From the NCBI GenBank assembly GCA_963837465.1, contig CAWINB010000004.1, positions 793,078 through 857,077 on the forward strand: DNA of 64,000 nucleotides, in the 5' to 3' direction. How positions within the stretch are numbered: the first letter of the stretch is position 1; each line of letters opens with the position of its first letter. The position numbers and the translations under genes were made by a program. Shown here piece by piece: positions 31,811-62,606 of the stretch. The notes under the pieces are model-generated. The model did no database searches. It was not told the origin of the DNA and saw nothing but the letters and a program-made list of their open reading frames with translations. The stretch comes from Candidatus Doudnabacteria bacterium (GTDB lineage: Bacteria > Patescibacteriota > Doudnabacteria > UBA920).

Positions 31811-31911
31811 AATTGACAAGATTGACATAATTTAAAAAATTGACAAAATTAAAGCTGTGTCCTAATTATGTCAATTATGTCAATTTTATTTAATTTTGTT
31901 CAATAAACTTT
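31811..31911 (+). promoter_or_regulatory. Promoter/leader cassette A (TTGACA boxes, inverted TGTCAAT repeats, conserved leader ending at the rpsM ATG)
   Basis: ~95-nt near-identity to 62514..62606. Confidence 0.55.
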
Positions 31912-32301
31912 ATGGCCAGAATCGCCGGAATAAATTTACCCAACGAAAAACGCGTCGAAGCGGCATTGCCCTATATTTACGGCGTGGGTTTAAGTTTGTC
32001 AAAAAAAATTCTCGCTTCGGCCAGCGTGGATCCCGACAAGCGCAGCAAAGACTTAACGGAGCCCGAGTTAAACCGCATCCGCGAATATATTGAAAAGCAC
32101 TTTAAAGTGGAAGGCGAGCTCAGGCAGCAGGTTTTACTCAACATCAAGCGCCTTAAGGAAATTGGTTCCTACCGCGGCATCCGCCATATAAAAGGCTTGC
32201 CGGTCCGTGGCCAGCGCACCAAAACCAACTCCCGCACCCGCCGCGGCAACGTGCGCAAAACCGCGGGCAGCGGCCGCAAGAACGCTTCGGAAAAGACCTA
32301 G
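31912..32301 (+). CDS. rpsM: Ribosomal protein S13
   Basis: [10 protein letters not shown]...[17 protein letters not shown]. Confidence 0.95.
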
Positions 32302-32302
32302 C

Positions 32303-32384
32303 TTCACGAAATACGAACAGGCGCGAACTCACAAGCTTCGCTTATCGATGATTCATATATTCGTAAATATTCGCGCTTCGCAAA
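32303..32384. repeat. P1 element, degenerate copy 3
   Basis: cacgaaatacgaacaggcgcgaac...ttcgtaaatattcgcgcttcg. Confidence 0.4.
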
Positions 32385-32404
32385 TTCTGTAAACTCTATT
32401 ATTT

Positions 32405-32875
32405 ATGGCAGAAGAAACCACAACTGAAACCCAGACGGAAAATTTGCCAAAAGTTTCGGCGACCGAAGCCGTTGTTGGCGATGCCCAGGGTCCTAAAATC
32501 AAGTCCAGGAAGAAAAAGGCCAAGGTCAAGGTTACCAAAGGTAAAATTTACATCAATTCCACTTACAACAATACCATTGTTTCCGCTACGGATATGTCCG
32601 GCAATGTTTTAATCTGGTCAACGGCCGGCAAGAACGGTTTCAAAGGTTCCAAAAAATCCACTCCTTACGCCGGACAGCGGACTATGGAAGATGTTCTGGC
32701 ACGTCTGCGCGAAAGGGGATTGGCGGAGGTTGACGTTTTGATCAAAGGCATAGGCAGCGGCCGCGAGTCTGCCGTCAGAGCGCTTCAGGGCAGCGGTTTA
32801 AGCGTGCTGTCCATTAAAGACCAGACACCCATCCCGCACGGCGGCGTCAGACCCAAGAAACCGCGGCGCGTCTAA
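32405..32875 (+). CDS. rpsK: Ribosomal protein S11 with an N-terminal extension
   Basis: GKIYINSTYNNTIVSATD...GFKGSKKSTPYAGQ. Confidence 0.9.
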   Translation: MAEETTTETQTENLPKVSATEAVVGDAQGPKIKSRKKKAKVKVTKGKIYINSTYNNTIVSATDMSGNVLIWSTAGKNGFKGSKKSTPYAGQRTMEDVLARLRERGLAEVDVLIKGIGSGRESAVRALQGSGLSVLSIKDQTPIPHGGVRPKKPRRV

Positions 32876-32880
32876 TCCGC

Positions 32881-32960
32881 AGTTAAAAGTTATCAAGTTG
32901 CAAGTTATAAAGTAACCGCAACTCATACTTGATAACTTTCTACTTTTAACTTTATAACTA
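32881..32960 (+). promoter_or_regulatory. Nested inverted repeats in the rpsK-rpsD intergenic region (structured leader)
   Basis: aaaagttatcaag/cttgataactttt, gttaaaagt/acttttaac, agttataaagt/actttataact. Confidence 0.4.
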
Positions 32961-32964
32961 ATTT

Positions 32965-33573
32965 ATGAGATACACCGGACCAAAAGTAAAAAAAGCCAGA
33001 CGGCTTGGCATGGCCTTTACGGCCAAAGACGCCAAAATTTTGCAAAAGCGGGGTTTCCCGCCTGGCCAGCACGGCCAGAACCGGGTCAGGCTTTCCGAAT
33101 ACGGGACCCAGTTGCGCGAAAAGCAGAAAGCCAAAATCGCCTACGGAGTTATGGAAAGGCAGTTTGAAATTTATTTCAACAAGGCCTTGAAGCAGCCCGG
33201 CGTTACCGGCGATAATCTGCTCAAGCTTTTGGAAATGAGGCTGGACAACATTGTTTACCGTCTGGGTTTTGCCGAAACCCGCGCCCAGTCGCGGCAGCTG
33301 GTCAATCACGGTTTTTTTGAGGTCAACGGCAAAAAAGTCGACATTCCTTCTTACCAGGTCCGCTCCGGGGACTTAGTCGCCATCAGGGCTGTCAAGCAAA
33401 AAAAAGCCTACCTGGAAAAAATCAGGGAAAAGTTAAAGAATTTTAAAACCATGGACTGGCTGGAATTAAACGGCGGCAAGTTTTCCGGAAAAGTTTTAAG
33501 CTCGCCGCTGGTTGAAGGTCTTGAAAGCAATATCAACACCCAGCTTATAGTTGAGCATTACAGCAGAACATAA
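32965..33573 (+). CDS. rpsD: Ribosomal protein S4
   Basis: MRYTGPKVKKARRLG... Confidence 0.95.
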   Translation: MRYTGPKVKKARRLGMAFTAKDAKILQKRGFPPGQHGQNRVRLSEYGTQLREKQKAKIAYGVMERQFEIYFNKALKQPGVTGDNLLKLLEMRLDNIVYRLGFAETRAQSRQLVNHGFFEVNGKKVDIPSYQVRSGDLVAIRAVKQKKAYLEKIREKLKNFKTMDWLELNGGKFSGKVLSSPLVEGLESNINTQLIVEHYSRT

Positions 33574-33584
33574 TTAATAATAAT

Positions 33585-33647
33585 ATCCTTTATCCTTTAT
33601 CTTTAATCTTTTACCGGTTAAAGATTAAGGATTAAAGATAAAGGATT
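33585..33647. repeat. Heptamer run (ATCCTTT ATCCTTT ATCTTTA ATCTTTT) that is also the left arm of a palindrome around ACCGGT
   Basis: Direct reading in the rpsD-rpoA intergenic region. Confidence 0.6.
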
Positions 33648-33655
33648 CATCTATT

Positions 33656-34594
33656 ATGGAAGCCATCCCTCTGCCAAATCACGCCCATGTTACGGACCTG
33701 GGCGACAATAAATATAGTCTGGTTTTAGAGCCCCTTTATCCGGGTTATGGTGTTACTATTGGCAACGCCATGCGCAGGGTACTGCTTTCTTCCATGCCCG
33801 GCGCGGCAGTAACTTCCGTAAAAATTAAGTTCGTGGACCACGAATTTTCCACCATCCCCAATGTTAAGGAAGATGTCATTCAGATTATCCTGAACTTAAA
33901 ACAGCTTCGCCTGCAGAGTTTTAGCGGCGAGCCGGTTAAGCTGTCGTTAAAAGCAAAGGGAGAAAAAGTAGTGACCGCGGCCGACATAAAAGAAACCGAT
34001 CAAGTCCAGGTTATAAACAAAGGTTTGCATATTGCCACTTTGGACAACAAAAATTCCGATTTTGATATGGAGCTGACGATTGAACAGGGTCGCGGCTACG
34101 TGCCGGTTGAAGCCCGGGAAAACCGCAAGCAGGAAGTCGGCGTTATTGCCATAGACGCGATTTTTACTCCGGTAAAATCCGTCCATTTTGATGTTACCAA
34201 CGTCCGCGTGGGGCAACTGACCAACTTTGACCGTTTGGAAGTTGTTATGGAAACGGACGGCGGGTTAACCGGCCAGGAAGCGTCCGACATTGCCGCGCAC
34301 ATTTTGGTTGACCATTTCAGCATGGTTTTCCTTGGCGGTTTTGGCGCCGCGGAAACTCCAAAGCAAGCCGAGCAATCCGTTCCGGAAGCCCAGGCGCCGG
34401 AGGCCGCGCAAGTGGCCGGTCAGGAAAATGAAATAGAAGCTTCCGCCCTTTCCACCCGCGCCAAGAACGCGCTGGTAAAAAATAATATTACGACCATGGC
34501 CCAGCTTTCCGCCCTTACCAATGATCAGATTTCCAACTTAGGCGGCCTGGGAGATAAGACAATTAAGGAAATTACGGAATTTTTAGGAAGATAG
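33656..34594 (+). CDS. rpoA: DNA-directed RNA polymerase subunit alpha
   Basis: N-terminal dimerisation domain and C-terminal alpha-CTD (ALSTRAKNAL..). Confidence 0.95.
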   Translation: MEAIPLPNHAHVTDLGDNKYSLVLEPLYPGYGVTIGNAMRRVLLSSMPGAAVTSVKIKFVDHEFSTIPNVKEDVIQIILNLKQLRLQSFSGEPVKLSLKAKGEKVVTAADIKETDQVQVINKGLHIATLDNKNSDFDMELTIEQGRGYVPVEARENRKQEVGVIAIDAIFTPVKSVHFDVTNVRVGQLTNFDRLEVVMETDGGLTGQEASDIAAHILVDHFSMVFLGGFGAAETPKQAEQSVPEAQAPEAAQVAGQENEIEASALSTRAKNALVKNNITTMAQLSALTNDQISNLGGLGDKTIKEITEFLGR

Positions 34595-34602
34595 GTAACG
34601 GC

Positions 34603-34672
34603 TAATCAGTAAATCAGCTAATCAGTAATCAGTACTGATATGCTGACCAGCTGATTCGCTGACCAGCTGACA
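34603..34672. repeat. Tandem repeats (TAATCAG-like heptamers, then GCTGACCAGCTGA x2) between rpoA and rplQ
   Basis: Direct reading. Confidence 0.55.
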
Positions 34673-34675
34673 CAT

Positions 34676-35020
34676 ATGAGGCACAAAAAGAAGAAAAAAA
34701 TCGGCAAAGGCAATGACCACAGAAGGAAGCTTCTTCGGACTTTGGCTTCGTCCCTGATTTTATACGAGAAAATCCGGACCGGCTACGCCAACGGTAAAGC
34801 CGCGAAAAGTTATACTGAAAAAGCCATCACCATTTCCAAAACCGGCACGCTCCACGCCCGCAGACAGCTTTTATCCAAGCTTTCGCCAATGGCCGCCAAA
34901 AAAGCCATGGAGGTTTTGGGCCCAAAGTACATCGACCGCAAGGGCGGCTACACCAGACTGCTTAAGCTTAATAATCCCAAGGCCGGAGCATCCAAAGTGC
35001 TGTTAGAATTAGTAGAATAA
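34676..35020 (+). CDS. rplQ: Ribosomal protein L17
   Basis: MRHKKKKKIGKGNDHRRKLLR... Confidence 0.9.
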   Translation: MRHKKKKKIGKGNDHRRKLLRTLASSLILYEKIRTGYANGKAAKSYTEKAITISKTGTLHARRQLLSKLSPMAAKKAMEVLGPKYIDRKGGYTRLLKLNNPKAGASKVLLELVE

Positions 35021-35021
35021 A

Positions 35022-35102
35022 TTTACGAAGTACGAAATCAGTACGAACTTACGAATGGTTCGCATCCGATTCGTAAGTTCGTAAAAATTCGTACTTCGTA
35101 AA
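35022..35102. repeat. P1 palindromic element copy 4
   Basis: tttacgaagtacgaaatcagtacgaacttacgaa...ttcgtaagttcgtaaaaattcgtacttcgtaaa. Confidence 0.7.
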
Positions 35103-35108
35103 CTATAT

Positions 35109-35519
35109 ATGAAATCCCAAAGCATTACATTACCAAAGACAGTAAAACGCTCCTGGCACCAGGTGGATGTTTCAAAGCAATCTATGGGCCGCGTGGCCAC
35201 GGAAATTGCCAATCTGCTTCGCGGCAAGCACAAGCGCGACTTTACTCCTTATATGGATATGGGCGATTTTGTGGTTGCCGTTAACGCCGGATCGTTAAAA
35301 TTTACCGGCCGCAAAGTGGAACAGAAACAGTATTTCCGCCATTCCGGGTACTTGGGCGGACTTAAAAAGACTTCGCTGAAGAATTTACTGGAAAAAAAGC
35401 CGGAAGAAGTTTTAAAAAAAGCCGTCTTTAGCATGCTGGACGACGTTAAATTCCGCAAGTCAATGATGTCCAGACTGAAGATTGTAAAAGATGACAAACA
35501 TATTTACAAAATTGATTAA
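35109..35519 (+). CDS. rplM: Ribosomal protein L13
   Basis: WHQVDVSKQSMGRVATEIANLLRGKHK.. Confidence 0.95.
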   Translation: MKSQSITLPKTVKRSWHQVDVSKQSMGRVATEIANLLRGKHKRDFTPYMDMGDFVVAVNAGSLKFTGRKVEQKQYFRHSGYLGGLKKTSLKNLLEKKPEEVLKKAVFSMLDDVKFRKSMMSRLKIVKDDKHIYKID

Positions 35520-35547
35520 TTAAAATTTTTGAATTAAATAAAATTTT

Positions 35548-36189
35548 TTGATCGATCAATTTTACTTAATTTTGTCAATTTTACTTAATTATTTTATGCC
35601 TACAAAGACCCATAAAACTCCAGCCGAAGGCCATTCCGCCCCGGCCGCAAAACCCGCCGCTAAAGCTCCCCGCAAACCCAGGGCGGCCGCGGTAAAAAAG
35701 CCCGCTGCCCACAAAGCAGAGGAAGACGGTTTGGATATCTCCAAAGTTTCGGAATCAGCGGAAGCCGAGCACGAGGTTCCGGCCAAAGCCCACAGCGAAA
35801 AAGGCAGGTACATTTTTGCCACCGGCCGACGGAAAACCGCCATTGCCAATGTGCGTTTGTTTGAAGGTAAGGGCGATATGGTTGTCAACAAAAAACCTTT
35901 AAAGCAGTACTTTGCTTACAGTTTCCATTACGACGAAATTAGCCGTCCGTTTGAAGTAACCGGGCTTGGCGGCAAGCACTATTTTACCGCCCACGTAAAC
36001 GGCGGCGGCCCGCACGCCCAAGCCACAGCCCTCAGGCACGGCATCAGCATAGCCCTTGGCAAAACTTCCGAAGACGTCCGCAAAGTCCTGAAAAAGAACG
36101 GCTTCCTCACCCGCGACGACCGCAAAAAAGAACGCAAGAAACCAGGCCTTAAACGCGCCAGGCGTGCCGGACAGTGGGCGAAGCGTTAG
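35548..36189 (+). CDS. rpsI: Ribosomal protein S9 with an Ala/Lys/Pro-rich N-terminal extension; likely start 35596
   Basis: GRRKTAIANVRL...GGGPHAQATALRHGISIAL; the conserved leader motif ttaattattttATG ends at 35596. Confidence 0.9.
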   Translation: MIDQFYLILSILLNYFMPTKTHKTPAEGHSAPAAKPAAKAPRKPRAAAVKKPAAHKAEEDGLDISKVSESAEAEHEVPAKAHSEKGRYIFATGRRKTAIANVRLFEGKGDMVVNKKPLKQYFAYSFHYDEISRPFEVTGLGGKHYFTAHVNGGGPHAQATALRHGISIALGKTSEDVRKVLKKNGFLTRDDRKKERKKPGLKRARRAGQWAKR

Positions 36190-36200
36190 AAATTATATCA

Positions 36201-36228
36201 AACACCCTGTAAATACAGGGTGTTTTTT
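36201..36228 (+). terminator. Rho-independent terminator after rpsI
   Basis: aacaccctgtaaatacagggtgtttttt. Confidence 0.7.
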
Positions 36229-36430
36229 ATGTGATTAAAGAACCTCTGCTGCACTAAAAGTAACAAGTCGGGAAAGAAATCAGCGCGCTTAAACAACAGG
36301 CGGAAAATTGGATTAACCTTAACAACCAGCAAAAAAACCTGTTTAAGGACGAAGCCGATGCCTACTTTAAAAGTTACAAATACCTTGGTTTTACTTACAA
36401 ATATGCCTATGAATTTTTAGAACAAACTTT

Positions 36431-36541
36431 GGAGACGAGAAATCCGTCGAGGGTTCTATCAAGATTGGCGCTAAGGGCTTTATAAGCAAGCCCTTCACAG
36501 CAGAAAAAATACTTGCGGCACTGGGAAATGGCACCCTTTAA
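36431..36541 (+). pseudogene. Remnant of a response-regulator receiver domain (C-terminal ~36 aa)
   Basis: GDEKSVEGSIKIGAKGFISKPFTAEKILAALGNGTL* carries the KPF receiver motif; no intact upstream frame. Confidence 0.35.
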
Positions 36542-36757
36542 AGACATGACGGGGAAATGGAGGAAAATTATACGAGTAAACCGAAGATTCTACAAAAATT
36601 CGGCACGGCGGGCAGAGTGTAATTATCTGCCTTCCTTTCCGAGTTCATCAAAAAATTGGTGAATTGAGAAGGGGATATCGCTTGGTTTAATTTAAAAACG
36701 CCCGGCAGAACGATTTTATGCTATACTGTAGGAAATAATATAATTAAACTTAATTTT

Positions 36758-37536
36758 ATGGAATCAAATAATATTTTGCCAAAATGGTTAATAAATTGTT
36801 TGGGTGGTTTGCTGATACTTTTGGTGGCTTTGCTGGTTGTGCAAAAAGCTCAGGATTTGCATACGGCTTTTGCCAATAGTAAGCCAGCTAATACAATATC
36901 GGTTTCTGGTGAGGGTAAGGTTACCGCTACTCCGGATTTGGCTACTGTTACTATTGGTGTAATTTCGCAGGGCGTCGACCGTCGGCGGCCGTGCAGAGCC
37001 AGAATGATGATAAGGTAAATAAGGTTATTGCTTTTATTAAACAGCAGGGGATTGCGGACGCGGATGTTTCCACTTCCCAGTACAATATCCAGCCGCAGTA
37101 CGATTACACCAAGAGCCAGCCTGCAATTACCGGCTACCAGGTTAACCAAAGCGTGGTGGTTAAAGTACGCGGCGTAGATAAATCCCAAACAGTTTTAAAT
37201 GCTATTTTAGACGGCGCGGTAGGTAGCGGAGCCAACGAGATTGATGGTGTAGATTTGTCGGTGGACAACCCCGATGCCCTACAGGAACAGGCCCAGGAGC
37301 AGGCAATTTCCAATGCCAAACAAAAGGCTCAGGCGCTGGCCCAGGCCGCGGGTTTAACTTTGGGTAAAGTTGTTAGTGTTTCGGAAAATTCCGTAACTCC
37401 CGTTCAGCCGATGCCTTACGCCTTTAATTCCTCGCTGGCCATGGGAGCCGCTCCGGCCGCGGCTGTTGCCCCAAGCATCCAAACCGGCAGCCAGGAAATA
37501 GACGAGACAATGACGCTGACTTTTGAGATCAAATAA
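36758..37536 (+). pseudogene. SIMPL/DUF541 (BP26-like) periplasmic protein, frameshifted near 36975 (or a sequencing indel)
   Basis: ORFs 36758..37018 and 36991..37536 together give the SIMPL N-terminus (TISVSGEGKVTATPDLATVTIGV) and remainder (SAAVQSQNDDKVNKVIAFIKQQGI...) in different frames. Confidence 0.6.
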
Positions 37537-37640
37537 CATAATTCTATAGACAAGATCCGCCTAAGCCCTGCGCAAAGGGGGACGAGATTAAATAAATTTA
37601 AAGCAGAGACAAAGAAAGTAAACGGAAGGACACGGATATA

Positions 37641-37673
37641 AAAAATACCATGAGATTTTTCATGGTATTTTTT
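37641..37673. terminator. Bidirectional hairpin terminator
   Basis: aaaaataccatgagatttttcatggtatttttt. Confidence 0.55.
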
Positions 37674-37680
37674 ATGCTCC

Positions 37681-38085
37681 GGGCAAACTCATAAGCCGAA
37701 TTCTGTTTCTCTCCGCCTTCGCGTAAAGCTATGCGGATCAGCGCCGTAAAATAAATTACAGTTGCTGAATAATCATCTATCTAGCCCCGCCATTGCTGGC
37801 GGGATCGAGCAGCCTACCTAATTTGGCCTTGCACTCAAGTAAGGATTTAGCCGTTTCACCCTTCGGCTTCGCTCAGAGCCTCGCGGCCCCGGGTTTATAT
37901 GAAGGTTGATCCAAATTTTGGATCCCCGCGCCTTTCGGCGGCAGGCGTCACTGTTCGCACCTCGCGGATTACTCCGGACGGGGATTACCCGCTACCAATT
38001 TTGATAACTCTTAAGAGGTTATCAAACAAGTGTTCGGACTTTCCTACCCTTAAAATAAATTAAGGATCGATTATTCGGTTTGCCC
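37681..38085 (-). ncRNA. rnpB: RNase P RNA (bacterial type A)
   Basis: Reverse complement contains GGAAAGTCCGAACAC, GGTAGGCTGCTCGA, CTAGATAGATGA and ACAGAATTCGGCTTAT; P1 pairing GGGCAAAC/GTTTGCCC; no ORFs on either strand. Confidence 0.85.
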
Positions 38086-38111
38086 AAAGCCCATAAATAT
38101 TAGCAAAAAAG

Positions 38112-38141
38112 CTTGTTTTTGTCAACCTAAAATGGTATAAT
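38112..38141 (+). promoter_or_regulatory. Candidate promoter with extended -10 (TGGTATAAT)
   Basis: cttgtt...18nt...tggtataat. Confidence 0.45.
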
Positions 38142-38245
38142 AAAACCGCTGAATTCACGCTGAAGACTGCGACGTTGGTTATAACGCTGAATACGAATTT
38201 CAGCGACTGTTTAGCGTTAGAATCGGCATCATTTTAGCGGTTTTT
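38142..38245 (+). promoter_or_regulatory. Structured 5' leader of the WbaP-like gene (CGCTGAA repeats; terminator-like hairpin abutting the ATG)
   Basis: aaaaccgct...(cgctgaa x3, ttcagcg)...agcggtttttATG. Confidence 0.4.
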
Positions 38246-39682: not shown

Positions 39683-39684
39683 GC

Positions 39685-50912: not shown

Positions 50913-50923
50913 TTCTTTCAGCA

Positions 50924-50958: not shown

Positions 50959-51113
50959 TACAATAGTTCTGAGTTTTGGCATTTTAACAGCCGATAAATC
51001 GGCTAACTACATCGGGCTAATCCACTTTACAAACCCTTCTTTCGGACAGCTTTTATTTATGAGTGGATTCTGTTATAATATCAACATGTAATTTTAATTA
51101 GATTATCCAGATT

Positions 51114-51153
51114 GCCGATAAATACCGTAGGACGACACAAGTCGGCGCGCTAC
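51114..51153. promoter_or_regulatory. P4 motif split by a 19-nt insert (GCCGATAAAT[accgtaggacgacacaagt]CGGCGCGCTAC) in the secA leader
   Basis: Alignment to 738..758 and 24407..24427; preceded by TGTTATAAT extended -10 at 51071-51079. Confidence 0.5.
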
Positions 51154-51156
51154 ACT

Positions 51157-53905
51157 ATGTCATTTTTATCCAAAATTTTCAGCGGACAAAACAATTCCCT
51201 CGCCAAATTTTCCGGGGAGCTGGACGCGGTTAATGGTTTTAAGGAAGATGTGGAAAAACTTTCCCAGGAAGAGATTAAAGCGGAAATTTCAAATTTCAAA
51301 TTGGAAATTTCAAAGCTCGAATCGGACAGGGAAATTTTCGAGCAGCTGCAAAAAATCGCGTCGCGGGTTTTTGCCTTGACCAGGGAAGCGGCCAAAAGAA
51401 GCATCGGGCAGGAGCACTACGATGTGCAGCTGGCCGGAGGTTTTGTTTTGGCCGAAGGCAAGATCGCGGAAATGAAGACCGGCGAGGGGAAAACCTTAAC
51501 CGCTACTTTGCCTTTGGCTCTGTACGCTTTAGCCAGCAAAGGCGCGCACCTGGTTACGGTTAACGATTACCTGGCCCGCTGGCAGGCCAGCTTAATGGGT
51601 CCGGTTTACCGCTACCTTGGTTTGAGCGTGGCTTCCATCCAGCACGAAGCCAGTTTTTTATATGATCCTGACTACAAACCCGAGCAGGAAGAAATAGATA
51701 AGCTGGAAGGTGAAACCCAGGGGCTGATTATGGACGTTAAGCATATGCGCCCCATTTCCAGGCGGGAAGCTTACGCCGCGGAGATAACTTACGGCACCAA
51801 CAACGAATACGGTTTTGATTACCTGCGCGACAATATGGCCCAGCACCAAAACCAAATTACCCAGCGCGGACTTTTGTTTGCCATTGTGGACGAGGTAGAC
51901 AGCATATTGATAGATGAAGCGCGCACGCCGCTCATTATCAGCGCTCCGGACACCGAGCCGACCAGCAAGTATTACGACTTCGCGCGTTTGGTGGACGGCC
52001 TGGATGAAGCTACGGATTACACCGTGGATGAAAAACACAAAGCCGCCAGCTTAACCGACTCCGGCATCAACAAAATAGAAGCGTTGCTGAAAATCCCGAA
52101 TATTTATGATACCAGCAAAGGCGTTACAACCATCCACCATATTGAACAGGCTTTGCGCTCAAGAACTTTGTTTAAAAAGGACCGCGACTATGTGGTGCGC
52201 GAGGGTGAAATAATCATCGTCGATGAATTTACCGGCAGGCTGATGTTCGGCAGGCGCTACAGCGAAGGTTTGCACCAGGCCATAGAAGCCAAGGAAAATG
52301 TTAAAATTCAGCAGGAAAGCAAAACACTGGCTACAATAACTTTCCAAAACCTTTTTCGGCTTTATAAAAGACTTTCCGGCATGACGGGCACGGCCAAAAC
52401 CGAAGAAGAAGAATTTTTTAAAATTTATCAGCTGACCGTGCGGCAAATCCCGACCCACCGCCCCATGGTGCGCGAGGATTTGTCGGACTTGGTTTATAAA
52501 ACCGAAGACGCCAAATTCAGCGCCATAGCGCGCGAGGTCAAACAGCGGAACCAAAAGGGCCAGCCTGTGCTTATTGGCACCGTCAGCATCGCCAAAAACG
52601 AAATGCTGGCCGAGGTTTTAAAAAAAGAAGGGCTGAAGTTTGAAATTTTAAACGCCAAAAACCACGAACGCGAAGCGCACATTATTTCCCAGGCCGGACG
52701 CTTTGGGCAAATTACTCTGGCCACCAACATTGCCGGACGCGGCGTGGATATTTTACTTGGCGGCAATCCTGTTGATGATGAAGAAGCCGAAAAAGTCAAG
52801 CAGGCCGGCGGTTTGCATATTTTGGGCACGGAAAGGCACGAGTCGCGCCGCATAGACAACCAGTTGCGCGGCCGCGCCGGCCGCCAGGGCGACCCGGGAA
52901 GTTCGCAATTTTTTGTTTCCATGGAAGACGACCTGATGCGTTTGTTCGGCGGCGAGCGCATGAAAAATTTAATGACCAGGCTGGGCTTGCCGGACGAGCA
53001 GCCGATTGAGGCGGGGATGGTTTCCAAATCCATCGAAAGCGCGCAAAAAAGAATAGAAGGCCTGAACTTTGACACCAGAAAACACGTATTGGAATTTGAT
53101 GATGTGCTCAACCATCAAAGAAACGTAATTTACAAAAGGCGGCGGGGTTATCTGGCGGGGAACAATACCAAAGATGAAGATGGCAATGACATCAGCCTTT
53201 CCAATGAAATTTTAGAGATGATTCGCCAGGAAATCGGCGGCATTGTAAGCTACAACCTCAACCTGCTGGATGAATACGGCGGCAAAAAAGAGGACTGGGA
53301 CAATTTATTTAAAAATGCCAACATAATTATTCCGGTAACTCCGGAGCTGGTAAAACAGATTAAGGAAGAAACCGTTAACGCCGCTGATCGTGAATTCGCC
53401 GTCAGCGATGCCTTGTACAACGCGGCTAAAAAATTATGGGACCAAAAAGAACAGGAAATGGGCAAAGATGTGTTTGAAGGCGCGCAAAGGTTTATTGCCC
53501 TGCAGTCACTGGACCAGTTATGGATGGAGCATTTGGATACATATGGACCATTTGCGCGACTCGGTAAGGCTGCGCGGTTACGGCCAGCGGGACCCGCTGG
53601 TGGAGTATAAAAAAGAAGGTCACGGTATGTTCCAGCTGCTGCTTAAGGAGATTAGCAAACAAATTGTTTCCAGTATTTTTCACATCACAGCGCAAAGAGC
53701 TCCGCTTCCTTCGGTAATACCGGCCAATTTGGTAACAAATTTATCCGATGGCTCCTCGGGCCAAAATTCGTCGCCTGCCGAAAATATCGGCCGCAACGAG
53801 CCGTGCCCCTGCGGCTCCGGAAAAAAGTGGAAGAAATGCGGAATGTTAAACACGCCGGAGCATTTAGCAAAGATAAAAACAAAATCCCTAATCCCTAATC
53901 CCTAA
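51157..53905 (+). CDS. secA: Preprotein translocase ATPase SecA, +1 frameshift near 53542 (probably a sequencing indel), SEC-C zinc motif at the C-terminus
   Basis: DEAD motor domains; ORF 51112..53610 ends ...WMEHLDTY, then frame 2 continues MDHLRDSVRLRGYGQRDPLVEYKKEG...CPCGSGKKWKKCG. Confidence 0.85.
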
Positions 53906-53911
53906 TCCCTA
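53884..53911. repeat. Heptamer tandem repeat ATCCCTA x4 ending 4 nt before a start codon
   Basis: atccctaatccctaatccctaatcccta, then cttt ATG. Confidence 0.85.
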
Positions 53912-53915
53912 CTTT

Positions 53916-54203
53916 ATGCCCAACGATTACATAAAAAAAGAACCTTCAAAAACCGAAAAAATGCTGTACGAATTGGCCATGAGCCAGCATCAGTTGGAAA
54001 AAGGTTTGTGGTCAACATCAACCGTGGTTATGGCTTTGGCTGTTTTAAGCAATGCCAAGCCGGACGATGTTGCCAAGCTGATGTTTGACGATGTCAGAAT
54101 TAAGGAATTCAGCGACAAGGTCAACGAAGCCATAAAAAAGCTGCGGGCCGAAAAAGACCAAAAAGCCGAAATCCCGCAAGAGTTTGACAAAAAATCGGAA
54201 TAG
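53916..54203 (+). CDS. Hypothetical small protein (95 aa)
   Basis: ORF with one hydrophobic segment; no recognisable domain. Confidence 0.5.
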   Translation: MPNDYIKKEPSKTEKMLYELAMSQHQLEKGLWSTSTVVMALAVLSNAKPDDVAKLMFDDVRIKEFSDKVNEAIKKLRAEKDQKAEIPQEFDKKSE

Positions 54204-54467: not shown

Positions 54468-54534
54468 GCCAAAATGCAAAAATAAAAGCAATCTGGTATA
54501 ATCAAGCCAGGTTGTTTTTAGTTGATTGCCTGTT

Positions 54535-54581
54535 CCATCCCGGAATTTTTAAGGGCCTTATCTTAAAAATATCCGGGATCC
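54535..54581. repeat. P2 hairpin element copy, upstream of the GNAT gene
   Basis: ccatcccggaatttttaagggccttatcttaaaaatatccgggatcc. Confidence 0.55.
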
Positions 54582-54600
54582 AGTACGGAGAATTAATTGT

Positions 54601-55125: not shown

Positions 55126-55185
55126 ACACTTTTTCTGCTCTGGGTACAGGATTATTTTTATAGTGTAAAAAGTTTTTTTAATGCT

Positions 55186-56378: not shown

Positions 56379-56388
56379 CTTTCGCCAC

Positions 56389-56844
56389 ATGGAGATAAAG
56401 CAAAGGCCAAAAGTTGGTATCGCGGTTTATATTTTAAATCATAAAAACCAGGTTTTATTAATGTTAAGAAAAGCTGTCGCAGGGGCAGGTACTTGGTGTC
56501 CGCCCGGTGGCCATTTGGAAATGGGGGAAGAATTTTTTGACTGCGTCAGGCGCGAATCCAAGGAAGAAGTGGGTTTGGCTATTGAAAGCGCGAAGCTCTG
56601 GGCGGTAAATAATAATATTATGGGACCCGAAAGGCATTATGTGAACTTGGATTTTGTGGCTACTGTCTGGCGAGGCGAGCCTAAAAATCTTGAGCCCAAA
56701 AAATGCGAAAAAGTAGAATGGTTTGATTTAAACAACCTGCCCAAACCTTTAATGGAGCCAACGGAGAATTTTTTTAAACAAAATCCTCTCTGCGTTTGCC
56801 AAAGCGGGAAAAAATATTTAGACTGCCATGGGAATAATAATTAA
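56389..56844 (+). CDS. NUDIX hydrolase with a C-terminal SEC-C-type zinc motif
   Basis: Nudix box GGHLEMGEEFFDCVRRESKEEVGL; tail CVCQSGKKYLDCHG. Confidence 0.8.
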   Translation: MEIKQRPKVGIAVYILNHKNQVLLMLRKAVAGAGTWCPPGGHLEMGEEFFDCVRRESKEEVGLAIESAKLWAVNNNIMGPERHYVNLDFVATVWRGEPKNLEPKKCEKVEWFDLNNLPKPLMEPTENFFKQNPLCVCQSGKKYLDCHGNNN

Positions 56845-56845
56845 G

Positions 56846-56883
56846 TATTACGCAATTCTGACGGCCGTCAAAATCGTGTAATA
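56846..56883. terminator. Hairpin with an ACGGCCGT centre (P3 family, deletion-variant of 23645..23680)
   Basis: tattacgcaattctgACGGCCGTcaaaatcgtgtaata. Confidence 0.5.
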
Positions 56884-56894
56884 CAAAATAGCTT

Positions 56895-57458
56895 ATGCTC
56901 AAGTTTATCACAGGAAATAAAAATAAGTTTTTGGAAGTTCAAAGAGTTTTGGCGCCTTTAAAAATCAGCCCGTCGAAGATAGATTTGGACGAAATTCAGG
57001 ACTTGGACCCATATAAGGTTATTCGGCATAAATTAAACCAGGCGCTTAAGCATAAAACGCCCGATTTTTTTATAGAAGATACGTCGCTGGTTTTTAAAGG
57101 CTTAAGCAGCCGGCTGCCTGGCACTTATATAAAGTTCTTTTTGGATGAGCTGGGCGCGGAGGGTTTATTTAAATTTGTAAAAAAAATGGGCAACCCAAAT
57201 TTTGAAATGCGGACTATAATCGCGTACGTACAAAATAACAGGAAGGTTAATTTTTTTGAAGGCAAGCTAAAAGGGATAGTTGTCGCGCCCAAAGGCAGCG
57301 GCGGATTTGGCCTGGATCCTATTTTAAAACCCATGGGATCAAAAATGACTTTGGCTGAATTAAAAGCTTTGGAAAAATACCAGTTAAGTACCCGCTATAA
57401 AGCGGCTTTCAAATTTAAACAATTTTTAATAAAAAATGGTACAATATTGAAACAGTAA
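56895..57458 (+). CDS. rdgB: Non-canonical purine NTP pyrophosphatase (RdgB/HAM1)
   Basis: MLKFITGNKNKFLEVQRVL...FIEDTSLVF. Confidence 0.8.
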   Translation: MLKFITGNKNKFLEVQRVLAPLKISPSKIDLDEIQDLDPYKVIRHKLNQALKHKTPDFFIEDTSLVFKGLSSRLPGTYIKFFLDELGAEGLFKFVKKMGNPNFEMRTIIAYVQNNRKVNFFEGKLKGIVVAPKGSGGFGLDPILKPMGSKMTLAELKALEKYQLSTRYKAAFKFKQFLIKNGTILKQ

Positions 57459-57467
57459 TAATATCTT

Positions 57468-60066
57468 ATGAAAAAAATATCCGTACGATTGCCAGCTTAC
57501 ATCAAGCCCGAGCGTTATAGATTAGCAATTAAACCCGATTTTGAAGGTTTTATTTTTAGCGGCGAAGAGAGTATAGATTTGGTTTTGGGAAAATCCGTAA
57601 GCAGTATAACTTTGCACTCCAAGGAGTTGGAAATTTTTGATGTTGAATTCCAAATTTCTAATTCCTCCGCCAAAAGCGGATCGGCCGTCGGCGGAAAATT
57701 TCCAACCCAAAAGCATCATATACAATGAAAAAGCCGAAACCGCGACATTTACTTTTAGCAAAAAATTACCCAAAGGCAGGGGAGTGTTAAGTCTTAAATT
57801 TAAGGGGCTTTTGACGGATAAGTTGAAGGGTTTTTATTTAAGCAAGTACAAACACCAAGGCAAAGAAAAACATATTGCCACTACCCAGTTTGAGCCAACA
57901 GATGCCAGGCGCGCTTTTCCGTGCTTTGATGAGCCCGCGCAAAAAGCCGTGTTTGAGGTTAGCTTAAAAACCCCAAAAAATTTAACCGCGATATCCAACA
58001 CCATAGAAACAGAAATTTTGGAGCACGAAGGCGGCTACAAGGTGGTAAATTTTGCTCCGAGCCCAAAAATGTCAACTTACCTGCTTGCTTTTATAGTTGG
58101 CGACTTTGAGTTTATTCAAGCGCGTTCCAAAGACAATGTTTTGGTCCGCGTTTTTGTCACGCCCGGAAAAAAATCCCAAGGACAATTCGCTCTGAACACG
58201 GCCATAAGGGCTCTGGAATTTTACAATAATTACTTTGACATACCTTATCCGCTGCCGGTTTTGGACCTTATAGCGCTGCCGGATTTTGCCTCGGCCGCCA
58301 TGGAAAACTGGGGTGCCATCACCTATCGCGAGACCGCCCTTTTGGTGGATGAAAAGCAGACATCAGCGGCCAACAAGCAGTGGGTGGCCATTGTCATTGC
58401 CCACGAAATTGCACACCAATGGTTTGGCAATCTGGTAACAATGGATTGGTGGACCGATTTGTGGCTTAACGAGGGCTTTGCCTCGTATATGGAATACCTG
58501 GCCACGGACAAACTTTTCCCCAAGTGGCAAATGTGGGAGCAGTACGTTTCGGGCAGGCAAGCCGTGGCGCTTCGGCTGGACGCGCTCGGCACCAGTCACC
58601 CCATAGAAATAACCGTGCGTCATCCCGATGAAATTTCCGAAATTTTTGACCAGGTCAGTTACGCCAAAGGCTCCGTGGTAATTCGTATGCTGGCCAATTA
58701 TTTGGGAGAAACTGTTTTCCGCGACGGCCTAAGGCACTATTTAAAAAAGCACAGCTACGGCAATACGGTTACCGAAGATTTATGGAAGTCCTTTGAAGCT
58801 GTTTCCAAAAAACCGGTAAGTAAAATGATGAAGTTGTGGACCAAAAAAACCGGATATCCCCTGATATCCGCCGTTCGCGAGGGCCAGCAAACCAAACTGT
58901 CCCAGCAAAGGTTTTTTTCCAGCAGCCTGTCCGGGAAAAAAAATCGGGACAACACGGTTTGGAAAGTTCCGCTGGAAATTTTAAACTACAAAGGCCAAAA
59001 AAATAAATTTTTGCTGGACAAAAAGTCAGGCCTCATCGGGACAAACGGCAAAGGCTGGCTAAAAATCAATCACGGGGAAACCGCGTTGGTCAGGGTTAAA
59101 TATTCCGCCGGCATGCTTAATGAAATCAAGTCGGCAATCGCTTCCCGAAAATTGGGCCCGATTGACCGCCTGGGCATTATCCGAGACGCTTTCGGGCTGG
59201 CCGAAGCCGGTCATATGGCTACTGTGGAAGCTTTGGAACTGGCCAAATTTTACGGCCGGGAAGAAGCATTGCCGGTCTGGGAAGAAATTTCTTCGGGCGT
59301 AGCTTTGGCCGGCGGTTTTTATAAGGACGAAAAATGGTATAAGCATTTCCGGAACTACGCCCTGGGACTTCACAGGCCGCTGGCGCTTAAGCTGGGCTGG
59401 GAAAAAAAGAAAAACGAAAGTCATGCAACCGGGCTTTTGCGCGGCCTGGCGCTTTTTCAGGCGGGAAATTACGGTGATACCGCCGTAATAAAAAAGGCGC
59501 AAGCTCTTTTTGCCGCTCACTTAAAAGGCAGGCAAATATCTCCGGATGTCCGCGGCGTGGTCTATAATCTGGTGGCCCAAAACGGGGGATTAAAACAATT
59601 CAGCCAAATGGTCGGGCTTTACAAAAAAGCAAGCCAGCACGAAGAACAGGATAGGATTGGCCGGGCACTGGGAAGTTTTCAGGATAAAACAGTCCTTAAA
59701 AAAGTTTTGGAATTTGCCTTAAGCAAAAATGTGCGGGCGCAGGACAGCCCGAGCGTATTTATAGGCGTGGGCAGGAATTTTTACGGCGCGGATTTGGCCT
59801 GGGAGTTTTTAAAAAATAACTGGGATGAAATTTTAAAGCGCTATAATGTTGGCGGCCATCTTTTGGAGTGGTTTATTGTTCCGTTCGGCCGTTTTTATAC
59901 CACAGCCCAAGCCAAAGATTTTAAAAATTTCTTTAAAAAACACCCAACTCCCAACGTGTCCCGCGCCATCAGCCAGGTTCTGGAAAAAATTTATTCCAAC
60001 GAGGCGTGGATAAAACGGGACGGGAAGAATGTCGGTAAATGGCTTGAGGAGACAATTAACAATTGA
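57468..60066 (+). CDS. pepN: M1-family aminopeptidase N, frameshift in the N-terminal region at the A4 run 57695-57698 (likely indel error)
   Basis: HEIAHQWFGN...NEGFASY zinc motifs; ORFs 57468..57728 and 57637..60066 are joined by removing one A in ggcggaaaatttcc. Confidence 0.85.
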
Positions 60067-60780
60067 CGATCAACAATTGACCTTCGGCCTTTTCCAGCGG
60101 CATAAAAGCTTAAGCTATGGGATTTCGGAAAAATCCGACGGCTCTATGAAGCTGCAGGGTTCGGATGTTATGGCTGCAAAAAATCGGAGTAAGTTTTTTA
60201 AGTCCCATGACATCCGTACCGGACAAAATATCACGCCGCTGCAAAGCCATTCCGCCACTATCGCCAAAATTACCTCTGATGATAATCATCAGCCAAGCGC
60301 CGATGGCTTAATTACGGACGTTCCGGACATAAGCCTAACCGTAACCGTTGCCGACTGCTTTCCGGTTTATTTTTACAATCCTAAAACTTCTGCCATTGGG
60401 CTGGCTCATTGCGGCTGGCGGGGGATTGTCGCCGGTCTTCCATCCAAGATGGCGGGGCGATGATCTCGGCGCTAAATTGTCCCGCCGATGATATCCTCGC
60501 AGGCATTGGCCCTGGCATAAGAGCTTGCCACTTTGAAATCAAGCCCGATGTTTTGGAAGAGTTTAACGATTACCCGCTCCATATTAATTTTGTCGGCCAG
60601 AAAATTTTTGTTGACTTGCCCGCAATCATCACATCCCAACTAACAGCCGCGGGAGTTCTCAAACAGAACATCGCCGATTCCGGCCACTGTACCTACTGCC
60701 AAAAAGACAAATACTTTTCCTTCCGCCGCGACCATCCAAAAAAAGTCCGAGCCATGGTTGCTTATATTGGTTTAATTTAA
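60029..60780 (+). CDS. pgeF: PgeF/YfiH (DUF152) purine nucleoside phosphorylase / peptidoglycan editing factor, frameshift at the G4 run 60454-60457
   Basis: VADCFPVYF...GLAHCGWRG and C.YC...YFSFRRD motifs; adding one G restores ...KMAGAMISALNC... Confidence 0.7.
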
Positions 60781-60821
60781 GCTGTTACTATAACGCACGG
60801 CCGTGCGTTATAGTAACAGCT
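60780..60821. repeat. 42-bp perfect palindrome agctgttactataacgcACGGCCGTgcgttatagtaacagct (P3 family)
   Basis: Direct reading, immediately after the pgeF stop. Confidence 0.8.
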
Positions 60822-61050
60822 GTGTCTGACCCGTAGATGCCCGTAGCTAGATAGTAGATATTGTCTGTTAGCATAAGCCCATAAATCGGTTAGCTACAAA
60901 ACCATTGCCAAACTCCGGTAGTCTGCTATAATACCCAAGATATTTGCCGCTGTTGCAGATATTATCTTATCTATTTATAAAATATCCAGGCCGTAAACAA
61001 GTTACTTTTGTCATTTCTGTCAATTTTGTCATTTTTGCTCATTTCCCTTT

Positions 61051-62520
61051 ATGCATCCTAAACTCAAGCTTTTTTCCTCGCTTTTTGCCATTTTACTTAT
61101 AGCTGCCGGTGCTTTGTGGATAGTTTTGCCCCGGGGCGGCCGCATTAATTTAAATAAGCTCAAAATCCCTTACAGCCAGTACTTTACGGTGCATTTGGGT
61201 TTGGATTTGCGGGGCGGCAGCCGGTTGGTTTACCAGGCGGATTTTTCGGGCATTCAGCCGTCGGACCAGGCCGATGCTTTAAACGCCATTCGCGATACCA
61301 TAGAGCGGCGGGTTAACAGCTTTGGTGTTTCCGAGCCCGTGGTACAGGTCAGCGGCAACAACCAAATCAGCATTGAACTGCCGGGAATCAAAAACATCAA
61401 CGACGCCATTAACCAAATTGGGCAGACGCCGACTTTAAATTTTGAAACCCAAAATCCCGCGGCCCAAACCGGCACAGTTTCAGCCAGCGGCACCGTAGCG
61501 CTGAATGCCGCGAGCCAGTGGGTTAGCACTGGGCTGTCCGGCAAACAGCTGGAAAGAGCTACGGTTGATTTTCAGCAGGGCCAGGGATTGAGCAATCAGG
61601 TTGTGGTGGATCTGCAGTTTGACAGCGACGGCACCAAACTTTTTTCCCAGTTAACTTCCGCCAATATCGGCAAACCTATCGGCATATTTTTGGATGGCCA
61701 GCTTATTTCCGCTCCGATTGTGCAGACTGCCATTACCAATGGCACGGCTGTAATCAGCGGCAATTTTACCGTGGATCAAGCCAAAGAATTGGTCAACAGC
61801 TTAAACAGCGGAGCTTTGCCCGTGCCCATTAAACTTATTTCCGAGGAAACAGTGGGCGCGACTTTGGGCAAAGCTTCGGTGGATCAATCCGTGGAAGCCG
61901 GGGTTATTGGTCTTGCCATGATAGTTTTGTTCATGATAATTTATTACCGTTTTCCCGGATTTTTGGCAACCCTGGCCCTGTTTATTTACGCTATTGTTTC
62001 TTTCGCCATTTTTAAAATCGGCATCTCGTTTACCGCGGTTATCCTGGTAGGTTTGTTTTTCTTTTTGGGTCTGACAGTAAACGCCTGGTTTGGGGCTCTG
62101 GCATTGTTGTCTTATTTAATCCTGCTGTTTGCCGGGGGGTTGGCGCCGGTGACGCTGACCTTGGCCGGCATTGCGGGGTTTATTTTGTCCATCGGCATGG
62201 CGGTCGACGCCAACATTTTAATTTTTGAAAGGTTTAAGGAAGAAATCCGCTCCGGCAAGGAAATTGACAGGGCCATTGAACATGGTTTCGCCCGGGCCTG
62301 GTTGAGCATCAGGGATTCCAACATGTCCAGTTTAATTACCACGGCCATCCTTTATATTTTTGGCACGCCGTCCATCCAGGGATTTGCCGTAACTTTGGGC
62401 ATAGGTATTTTAATTTCCATGTTCACGGCCATTACCGTTACCAGGACTTTTTTGAGAGTTTTTGTGGGCAATAATATTTTAACCCATCCGTGGCTGTTCG
62501 GGGTAAGCAGGAAGAATTGA
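61051..62520 (+). CDS. secD: Protein-export membrane protein SecD
   Basis: Periplasmic domain plus C-terminal 6-TM bundle. Confidence 0.9.
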   Translation: MHPKLKLFSSLFAILLIAAGALWIVLPRGGRINLNKLKIPYSQYFTVHLGLDLRGGSRLVYQADFSGIQPSDQADALNAIRDTIERRVNSFGVSEPVVQVSGNNQISIELPGIKNINDAINQIGQTPTLNFETQNPAAQTGTVSASGTVALNAASQWVSTGLSGKQLERATVDFQQGQGLSNQVVVDLQFDSDGTKLFSQLTSANIGKPIGIFLDGQLISAPIVQTAITNGTAVISGNFTVDQAKELVNSLNSGALPVPIKLISEETVGATLGKASVDQSVEAGVIGLAMIVLFMIIYYRFPGFLATLALFIYAIVSFAIFKIGISFTAVILVGLFFFLGLTVNAWFGALALLSYLILLFAGGLAPVTLTLAGIAGFILSIGMAVDANILIFERFKEEIRSGKEIDRAIEHGFARAWLSIRDSNMSSLITTAILYIFGTPSIQGFAVTLGIGILISMFTAITVTRTFLRVFVGNNILTHPWLFGVSRKN

Positions 62521-62606
62521 CAAAAATGTCAAAATTTAAAAAATTGACAAAATTCTCTGTTTATCCAAATTATGTCAATTTTATTTAATTTTGTTCAATA
62601 AGCTTT
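62514..62606 (+). promoter_or_regulatory. Promoter/leader cassette B between secD and secF (near-identical to cassette A)
   Basis: aattgacaaaaatgtcaaaatttaaaaaattgacaaaatt...aattatgtcaattttatttaattttgttcaataagctttATG. Confidence 0.55.

Follow-up and report, generated by a model that had tools for sequence, protein, structure and literature searches.

The 64-kb window analysed here, a stretch of contig CAWINB010000004.1 from a Candidatus Doudnabacteria bacterium, encodes cell envelope, Mur, Sec and ribosomal functions on genes that lie nearly all on the plus strand, at a GC content of 46% (positions below are window coordinates). Two of its intergenic gaps, between rpmJ and rpsM and between secD and secF, are filled by closely similar cassettes, which are treated below as copies of one TTGACA-type element. 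The identities of infA, rpsM, rpsK, rplM, rpsI, secD and secF were confirmed with NCBIfam. A preliminary description of the stretch had taken the shared sequence as a promoter/operator module, possibly the target of one regulator coordinating ribosomal and Sec genes, or as a portable promoter element. The comparisons assembled here indicate that the cassettes are very probably copies of a dispersed palindromic intercistronic repeat, itself part of a lineage-wide class of hairpins. The near-identity of the rpsM and secF copies reflects family membership together with recent copying or gene conversion, and not co-regulation of the two genes.

Alignment of positions 31790-31925 with 62495-62620 gives 83% mean column identity. 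The two cassettes have an exact block of 34 nt in common (AATTATGTCAATTTTATTTAATTTTGTTCAATAA), followed by a single A/G difference and CTTTATG, and their left arms are also nearly identical (AATTGACAA..TTTAAAAAATTGACAAAATT). Their near-identity is thus real, but the first impression that they align almost base for base was overstated: the central ~22 nt are unrelated (aaagctgtgtcct... at rpsM, ctctgtttatcca... at secF), and the rpsM cassette contains one additional 9-nt unit (TGTCAATTA). The 29-mer TGTCAATTTTATTTAATTTTGTTCAATAA occurs twice in the window against 0.00 occurrences expected, and for AAAATTGACAAAATT, with up to two mismatches allowed, 13 matches compare with an expectation of 1.6. 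These matches all fall into five intergenic sites, at 31.8k, 35.57k, 61.02k, 62.5k and 21.89k, and the window holds four to five copies of the element (Table 1). The sequences at the rpsM, secF, rpsI and secD sites, TTGACA-rich arms included, proved to be as first described, and the rpsI and secD sites are indeed related copies.

In the rpsM copy, the A-rich left arm (31811-31851) consists of three AATTGACA units, the loop (~31852-31862) is unrelated in sequence to that of the secF copy, and the T-rich right arm (31863-31904) is made up of TGTCAATTA, TGTCAATTT, TATTTAATT and TTGTTCAAT, followed by AAACTTT and the rpsM ATG at 31912; the predicted RNA fold has an energy of -22.9 kcal/mol (z -3.6). 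In the secF copy, the secD stop codon TGA (62518-62520) falls within the first AATTGACAA unit, an inner stem pairs 62540-62554 with 62568-62582, and the secF ATG lies at 62607; here the predicted fold reaches -14.7 kcal/mol (z -1.2). The degenerate copy in front of the rpsI ATG (35596) has an A-rich left arm, AAAATTGATTAATTAAAATTTTTGAATT, and a right arm of two tandem 19-nt units, GATCAATTTTACTTAATTT and TGTCAATTTTACTTAATTA; clearer copies occupy the same rplM-rpsI junction in the relatives L034, L036 and L058 (loci and contigs outside the window are cited by L numbers). At secD, a T-rich arm without a partner arm is situated 6 nt 5′ of the ATG at 61051, 3′ of a canonical promoter and inside the 5′ untranslated region (5′UTR), with its TTGACA boxes antisense. 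It contains an exact 20-mer, TGTCAATTTTGTCATTTTTG (61018-61037), common to an element arm in L012, and it forms no hairpin (-6.2 kcal/mol, z -0.1). The short palindrome directly 5′ of the ATG at 21923 is, on sequence resemblance, a weak candidate for family membership.

The possibility that the similarity arose as a local assembly duplication artefact is excluded, since the two cassettes differ in their loops and by an indel and have unique flanks, and since the 35 nt nearest to secF are reproduced in an independent Logan contig (L001, run ERR10755945). This contig breaks where 31-mers lose uniqueness; its end is a k-mer assembly break and not an RNA end. As for the leader that had been described as shared by rpsM and secF, the conserved block exists, but it represents the T-rich arm in its outer half, together with a short run of A/U-rich sequence, and not a gene-specific leader.

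Operon boundaries in the window are marked by canonical signals that lie outside the cassettes and are confined to operon ends. Evident promoters are of the form TTGACA/TTGCCA-N16-17-TGnTATAAT, with TGnTA(T/C)AAT-type boxes at the promoters 3806, 10892, 19197, 24493, 51112, 60905 and 63572, and evident terminators consist of a short GC-rich stem and a T-run. The promoter upstream of secD is the actual operon promoter, 5′ of both Sec-linked copies; beyond the terminator that follows secF, the next promoter is found at 63572-63600. Since the secD-secF pair is bracketed by a promoter and a terminator, and a further terminator closes the ribosomal protein operon after rpsI, the cassettes sit inside operons. 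A scan for a GC-rich stem plus T-run detected no terminator-like site within 31811-31911 or 62515-62606. Another Sec gene, secA (51112-53610), is without the element and has an ordinary TGTTATAAT promoter instead. Shine-Dalgarno (SD) sequences are nearly absent: GGAG or GAGG occurs at -20 to -4 in 2 of 51 window genes, and the base at -1 of the start codon is T in 32 of the 51 and never G. Despite this scarcity, GGAGG is present 7-10 nt 5′ of rpoA in several relatives.

Anatomy and distribution of the TTGACA-type element

The element is an imperfect palindrome of ~85-105 bp. Its A-rich arm comprises three to four units of ~9 bp with the consensus AATTGACAA (e.g., AATTGACAAAAATGACATAATTGACAAAATTGAGCAAAA), the loop between the arms is free in sequence, and the T-rich arm is composed of inverted units (TGTCAATTT..TTGTTCAATT), reading TAATTTTGTCAATTTTATTTAATTTT[TTAAATTTT]GTTCAATT in the direction of the flanking gene. 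An invariant core of 26 nt, ACAAAATTAAATAAAATTGACAAAAT, can be delimited, and conservation is highest in the inner region of the element, not at its ends. The sequences also reveal that AAAATT is phased every 9-10 bp. In 9 of 14 full copies (those of the window and L009-L059), the innermost hexamers of the two arms are 22-23 nt apart with unrelated sequences in between; the other five have spacings of 19, 20, 30, 38 or 45 nt. Variant copies in L033, L036 and L058 carry AAGATTGAC in place of AAAATTGAC and GTCAATCTT in the other arm, and their arms are still 74-93% complementary. The arms of these variants have thus changed in concert with complementarity kept, which speaks for the palindrome as a constrained feature. 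Owing to its palindromic nature, the element presents the same face in either orientation: the stop codon is followed by an A-rich arm whose TTGACA boxes are in sense, and the ATG is preceded by an arm that is rich in U and poor in G.

A 22-nt degenerate form of the core was scanned against the GTDB species representatives, a set without the source genome, for which copy counts refer to the 64-kb window. The scan returned 30 loci, 24 of them on Patescibacteria-type contigs. Of these 24, 23 are distributed over 13 assemblies (GC contents 0.35-0.55) that bear the labels Doudnabacteria, Saccharibacteria or 'Patescibacteria group', and ten of the 23 contigs belong to one fragmented metagenome-assembled genome (MAG). 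The remaining one (L024, CAWIOU010000013.1), a 215-kb contig with a GC content of 0.45, has a complete TTGACA-type element; its record bears the label Acidimicrobiaceae, probably through mis-binning of a Patescibacteria contig. Six of the 30 matches (in Oligoflexus, Kosmotogaceae, Mycoplasmatales, Brachyspira, Hodarchaeota and Pelagibacteraceae) are bare 22-mers and were set aside as chance. The same holds for two matches obtained when viral contigs were scanned with the core, both of which fall within coding regions of a single AT-rich phage, where no arrays surround them.

A search with arm profiles uncovered more copies in relatives of the window organism. Full elements in the order A arm to B arm are represented by the window copies and by L010, L019, L023, L024, L031 and L059, exact reverse-complement full elements by L004, L009, L012, L028 and L030, and single-arm copies are likewise present across genomes. 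Genes 3′ of the element in other genomes include rpsC, rplE, a HIT-family gene, a ROK-type kinase gene, pilC and a four-helix-bundle gene. In one MAG, CAZJLL01 (GC ~0.54; L002, L006, L007, L011, L014, L015, L017, L026), the conserved arm forms part of a longer, composite repeat in which GAGACTAG/GGACGAGA units, the arm, TAAGGAT/GTAAGGA units and TTTTGAC/CTTTGAC units follow one another. This composite is found on at least eight short contigs, in several cases near contig ends, which suggests that such repeats fragment the assembly.

The relative L011 is informative with respect to the Sec operon. Its SecD and SecF are 79% and 78% identical to those of the window, and it keeps the canonical secD promoter as well as the secF terminator and the promoter that follows, yet its secD-secF gap of 56 nt is without the cassette and its secD leader of 35 nt is without the TGTCA array. 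The comparison with related genomes, which the preliminary description had called for, places the element in at least 13 Patescibacteria assemblies at variable positions, including absence from the secD-secF gap of this close relative. The idea of a portable element is borne out, in the sense of a dispersed family found in many genomes and in front of many different genes. By contrast, one regulator coordinating ribosomal and Sec genes finds no support: the genes downstream are varied and unrelated, secA is without a copy, secD has a single arm with antisense boxes in its 5′UTR, and the same slots in relatives hold unrelated hairpins devoid of promoter-like motifs.

Hairpins between the genes of ribosomal protein operons

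The TTGACA element is one of about ten sequence flavours of 65-130-nt intercistronic hairpins in one Patescibacteria lineage. In the window, all eight junctions from infA to rpsI contain a long hairpin with arms of short tandem units. A second repeat family, TACGAA/TTCGTA, has four copies, at 1471-1552, 31602-31692, 35021-35105 and, in degenerate form, 32302-32404. The three intact copies are predicted to fold at -38.6 to -42.9 kcal/mol (z -6.5 to -9.3). Each copy ends a few nt 5′ of a start codon, one of them outside the ribosomal protein operon, before the gene at 1566. Further flavours occupy the rpsK-rpsD, rpsD-rpoA and rpoA-rplQ gaps (Table 1). The first of these (AGTTAAAAG/ATCAAGT) recurs at various junctions in L034, L039, L044 and L038/L043/L048, and the ATCCTTT flavour is found at the same rpsD-rpoA junction in L035, L036 and L059.

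The generality of this arrangement is apparent from a set of 40 related loci with RpoA proteins 42-92% identical to that of the window (61-92% in 39 of the 40). At the rpmJ-rpsM junction, nearly all close relatives have a ~90-nt hairpin of unrelated sequence, and one relative (L033) has a diverged TTGACA type; in more distant relatives this gap measures 5-20 nt, and their junctions range from 1 to 20 nt across the set. Taken together, the rpmJ-rpsM junction and the six later ones are mostly filled by hairpins whose arms consist of 7-10-nt tandem units. About ten flavours recur in the six later junctions, at differing junctions between genomes. The TTGACA flavour, for example, is situated between rpsM and rpsK in L059, between rplM and rpsI in L034, L036 and L058, and at both rpmJ-rpsM and rpsK-rpsD in L033. 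In the S10-spc operon of L019, hairpins are present at 12 of 13 junctions, two of them of the TTGACA type. In the geometry measured on 65 hairpin junctions, the stem starts a median of 2 nt past the stop codon (interquartile range 1-6) and ends a median of 11 nt before the ATG (interquartile range 6-17), with a median span of 76 nt and 26 pairs. Hairpin-free junctions in relatives measure 1-34 nt.

Presence, absence and replacement of flavours at orthologous junctions, together with the existence of a multi-copy family in both orientations, are also what a purely selfish insertion of the kind of a miniature inverted-repeat transposable element (MITE) would leave behind. Such an insert would be functionless and tolerated only because, by folding on itself, it spares the coupling of cistrons; this explanation overlaps with that of a dispersed intercistronic repeat but denies it any role. 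That distant relatives manage with junctions of 1-20 nt is in keeping with it. Neither a transposase, nor a target-site duplication, nor the conserved termini typical of MITEs were found, however, the inner region rather than the ends being most conserved, and occupancy of the ribosomal protein junctions is near-saturating with one element per gap, so that a wholly functionless insertion is judged very unlikely. The search for transposase domains covered 40 proteins of the one 64-kb window, and target-site duplications were looked for by inspection of the sequences flanking the copies.

Table 1. Features of the window discussed in the text
Feature	Position	Strand	Basis
Full TTGACA-type palindromic element, filling the gap from the rpmJ stop to the rpsM start	31811..31911		Alignment, profile matches on both arms
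Second full TTGACA-type element, filling the secD-secF gap	62515..62606		Alignment, independent contig L001
Degenerate copy, rplM-rpsI gap	35508..35595		Profile E=0.003 (35554-35592); fold -13 kcal/mol, z -2.0
Single T-rich arm, four tandem 9-mers (TGTCATTTC, TGTCAATTT, TGTCATTTT, TGCTCATTT), secD 5′UTR	61005..61044	+	20-mer match
Short related palindrome (AAATTAACAAA/TTTGTTAATTT, then AAAAATTTTACTTA), directly 5′ of an ATG	21884..21922		Profile E=3.5 only
TACGAA-flavour hairpin, infA-rpmJ gap; same class, different sequence family	31602..31692		Repeat search and fold
AGTTAAAAG/ATCAAGT-flavour hairpin, rpsK-rpsD gap	32876..32964		-19.7 kcal/mol, z -4.0
ATCCTTT-flavour hairpin, rpsD-rpoA gap	33585..33646		-27.2 kcal/mol, z -4.8
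AATCAG/CTGA-flavour hairpin, rpoA-rplQ gap	34591..34677		-34.8 kcal/mol, z -6.3
GGAATTATGAATTA/(ATTCCTA)n hairpin, same class, before the gene at 29475	29401..29469		Inverted-repeat search
secD promoter TTGCCA-16-TG-c-TATAAT, canonical	60905..60932	+	11/12 consensus positions, with TG; kept in relative L011
Intrinsic terminator 3′ of secF, canonical (short GC-rich stem and T-run)	63535..63552	+	Same arrangement in L011
Intrinsic terminator 3′ of rpsI, canonical; end of the ribosomal protein operon	36200..36225	+	Site scan

Several further repeats and palindromes were observed in passing. The (ATTCCTA)n run at 29401-29469, directly 5′ of the start codon at 29475, pairs with the GGAATTATGAATTA arm further upstream, and a tandem heptamer run, (CCCTAAT)n, is located at ~53885-53915, directly 5′ of the start codon at 53916. 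In relatives, a GC-rich palindromic repeat, gtcatcc(c/t)gagcg...cgagggatc, is intergenic in L008, L027, L033 (rplM-rpsI) and L066. Perfect palindromes of 22 bp (10750-10794) and 21 bp (60780-60821) are intergenic and without a T-run, the second being placed directly 3′ of an open reading frame ending at 60780 and 5′ of the secD promoter; two others, of 21 bp (22337-22381) and 18 bp (23645-23680), reside within two coding regions of glycosyltransferase family 2. The rpsI product, S9 (35596-36189), has an Ala/Lys/Pro-rich N-terminal extension of ~70 residues, its S9 domain beginning at residue 74.

Comparison with known repeats and signals

No known RNA family in Rfam matches the elements. At the gathering threshold, the only match in the whole window is RNase P RNA (class A, 37676-38086, 101.7 bits against a gathering score of 100), which is encoded on the minus strand amid an otherwise plus-strand region. 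At E<=1, the matches near the cassettes are limited to sub-threshold resemblances of the long hairpins to miRNA precursors and one match to Alpha_RBS (RF00140) at 31841-31944, with 20.6 bits and E=0.14. This last match could be taken to mean that the cassette is an autoregulatory leader of a ribosomal protein operon, such as the S4-binding leader of the alpha operon, duplicated by chance 5′ of secF. Its score is well under the gathering threshold of 38 bits, RF00140 has no match at secF, the element precedes many non-ribosomal genes, and relatives have unrelated sequences at the rpmJ-rpsM junction; a leader of this type is effectively refuted.

Among known kinds, the bacterial interspersed palindromic repeats (Correia/NEMIS, REP/BIME, ERIC, BOX) come closest. 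Like these, the present elements have inverted-repeat arms able to form a hairpin, dispersed copies in multiple genomes and in both orientations, and a variable occurrence at orthologous sites; sequence, target-site duplication and partner transposase all speak against assigning them to any of the named families. Correia elements of Neisseria (CREE/NEMIS) are similar in being imperfect palindromes of ~100-150 bp with many copies in both orientations, mostly intergenic and often co-transcribed with flanking genes, and in having promoter-like boxes in their arms, so that an insertion can create a promoter. Their transcript hairpins are reported to be RNase III substrates. They differ in sequence and in their TA target-site duplication, which was not seen for the present element, and they do not show its arms of 9-bp tandem units, its extension from stop to start inside operons or the ~ten other flavours in the same slots. 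REP/BIME, ERIC/IRU, BOX and RUP repeats are likewise short, intergenic and palindromic, occur in operons, are transcribed, form hairpins and affect mRNA stability, and they too are specific to species or lineages and variably present at orthologous sites. REP sequences, however, measure 20-40 nt, with a conserved GTAG-type head and a link to RAYT transposases; neither feature was seen for the present element, RAYT genes having been sought in the window only, where there is none. Compared with this class, the present elements are longer, contain tandem sub-units and come near to saturating the ribosomal protein junctions. With respect to stop and start codon overlap inside operons, MIRUs (mycobacterial interspersed repetitive units) are closest: they occupy intercistronic gaps and their ends overlap the upstream stop and downstream start, just as the secD TGA falls inside the first unit of the secF copy. 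Unlike the present elements, they are direct tandem repeats of 46-100 bp and not palindromes. Early-gene RNase III hairpins of phage T7, long hairpins between successive cistrons of one transcript, bear no sequence relation to the elements and may serve as a model by functional analogy only. A full-text literature search did not find a description of these elements in Patescibacteria.

Two further identities were discarded. Integron attC sites are not a match, as the ends of the element (AATTGAAC / GTTCAATT) misfit GTTRRRY, the ribosomal protein gene order is universal and the window encodes no integrase. TIGR-Tas arrays, which do occur in Patescibacteria, were set aside given that no Tas-like gene is among the annotated window proteins and that single hairpins stand between housekeeping genes.

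The promoter-like appearance of the cassettes calls for closer consideration. A portable internal sigma-70 promoter module would boost the genes 3′ of many intercistronic hairpins: the innermost TTGACA of the A-rich arm would serve as -35, the phased A-tracts upstream as an UP-like element and TAATTT/AATTAT at the start of the T-rich arm as -10, with the U-rich arm as a conserved SD-less leader of ~30-35 nt. A simple scan detects TTGACA-18-AATTAT on the plus strand of both copies, matching 10 of 12 consensus positions, AAAAAA abuts the -35 on its upstream side, and the 100 nt of the rpsM cassette hold 5 of the 11 promoter-like matches in 5 kb. The 22-23-nt inner spacing of the nine copies yields -35/N16-17/TAATTT despite unrelated loops, the conserved arm reads TTGA(C/A)(A/C)-N18-TAAAAT in reverse complement, TTGACA is in the sense direction in most single-arm copies, and a hairpin unit of arbitrary sequence would be unlikely to match the -35 consensus exactly. 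Moreover, the alpha operon of E. coli has a promoter 5′ of rpsM. The signals are, however, symmetric: equal or better promoters, TTGACA-17-TAATTT and TTGAAC-18-CATAAT with TG, are found on the antisense strand and would fire into rpmJ or secD, and the plus strand of the cassette is without the TGnTATAAT signature of every evident window promoter. Five of the 14 full copies depart from the spacing, the secD copy lies 3′ of a canonical promoter with its boxes antisense, and the GATT variant copies have lost the A-tracts and the -10 while arm complementarity is retained. The cassettes are, in addition, placed inside operons bracketed by a canonical promoter and terminator, a close relative does without the one in its Sec operon, and the same slots elsewhere contain hairpins without promoter motifs. 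An internal promoter is regarded as a serious rival explanation, though not the likelier one. TTCAAT, 6-7 nt before the ATG, was also considered as the -10 of a leaderless mRNA and was rejected because the critical A at the second position is missing.

Much of the same evidence can be read in terms of an array of operator sites. A protein that binds DNA symmetrically, whether as a global regulator or as a nucleoid-associated protein, would cooperatively occupy inverted AAAATTGACAAAATT half-sites that lie a fixed distance apart and are flanked by A-tracts and phased 9-10-bp units, and the genes on either side would be repressed or organised by it. Near-invariance of the arm, unpaired positions included, extends over genomes with 35-55% GC, the loop varies freely in sequence at a fixed inner spacing, AAAATT recurs with the 9-10-bp phase, and the element is independent of orientation. 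On the other hand, the downstream genes form no coherent regulon, secA is without the element, no candidate regulator gene was recognised nearby among the annotated window proteins, some copies are single arms or depart from the spacing, and the element is one among many interchangeable flavours in the same slots. An operator array therefore appears improbable. Promoter activity and a DNA-binding role could each coexist with a hairpin role, by analogy with Correia elements.

Possible roles of the intercistronic hairpins

As to what an intercistronic palindromic repeat might do, the somewhat favoured mechanism is that the cassettes are co-transcribed and act, if at all, as looped-out hairpins which leave a U-rich, G-poor landing region and may be processing or stability sites. 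The element would be transcribed within the operon mRNA, and its folding would loop out ~76 nt, reducing the effective distance from stop to start to ~15 nt. Such a distance falls within the 1-34 nt of hairpin-free junctions, so that reinitiation would stay coupled to termination, or ribosomes would still load on the U-rich 3′ arm independently of SD sequences. The slot logic is equally valid for flavours without promoter-like motifs. Long stems may double as RNase III processing or stability sites, and the elements may spread and replace one another in the manner of REP, ERIC or Correia repeats.

A number of observations weigh against this interpretation. Co-transcription and folding in vivo are themselves inferred, and, as noted above, neither a transposase among the window proteins nor a target-site duplication was found that would account for spreading. 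The predicted RNA hairpins of the TTGACA flavour are modest (-10 to -25 kcal/mol), and the fold of the secF copy is not significantly better than those of shuffled sequences. In the T-rich arm, the stretch of highest conservation (TTTTATTTAATTTT) is one for which no pairing is predicted, so that its near-invariance across genomes is left unexplained by pairing. Single-arm copies are unable to form a hairpin, and the 22-23-nt spacing of the inner hexamers is more readily reconciled with the spacer of a promoter, or with a site bound by a dimeric protein, than with the loop of a hairpin. Finally, in a set of 97 junction sequences with hairpins, some of them extending into the rpmJ coding region, the more stable fold belongs to the antisense strand more often than to the sense strand (63 versus 28, p=0.003), and fewer G-U pairs are formed in the sense strand. 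This excess is opposite to what simple selection for a stable sense RNA would give. It arises probably because the sense strand of the junctions is depleted in G, and it does not separate an RNA-level from a DNA-level function.

A more far-reaching proposal is that, in this SD-poor lineage, intercistronic hairpins are a dedicated expression device, with the TTGACA flavour as a mobile, self-contained 'promoter plus SD-less leader' cassette for any gene. With a hairpin that begins at the stop codon and stops ~11 nt short of the ATG, the outer stem would be melted by the ribosome as it terminates, and that ribosome might be handed directly to the next start codon; alternatively, RNase III might cut the operon mRNA into units. 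This proposal is a speculative one, and rather doubtful.

The sequence common to the cassettes should not be taken as a sign that ribosomal and Sec genes form a regulon. Of greater interest than the cassette pair itself is how pervasively hairpins separate the genes of ribosomal protein operons in a lineage poor in SD sequences: in one branch of the candidate phyla radiation, a ~85-nt hairpin of short tandem units is found in nearly every gap between ribosomal protein genes, and these hairpins belong to a limited repertoire of sequence families which change places between junctions. For genome annotation, these repeats account for contig breaks in MAGs and are liable to be taken for promoters. 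The stop-hairpin-start geometry offers a concrete and testable hypothesis for how operon transcripts may be processed and start codons found in bacteria that are nearly devoid of SD sequences.

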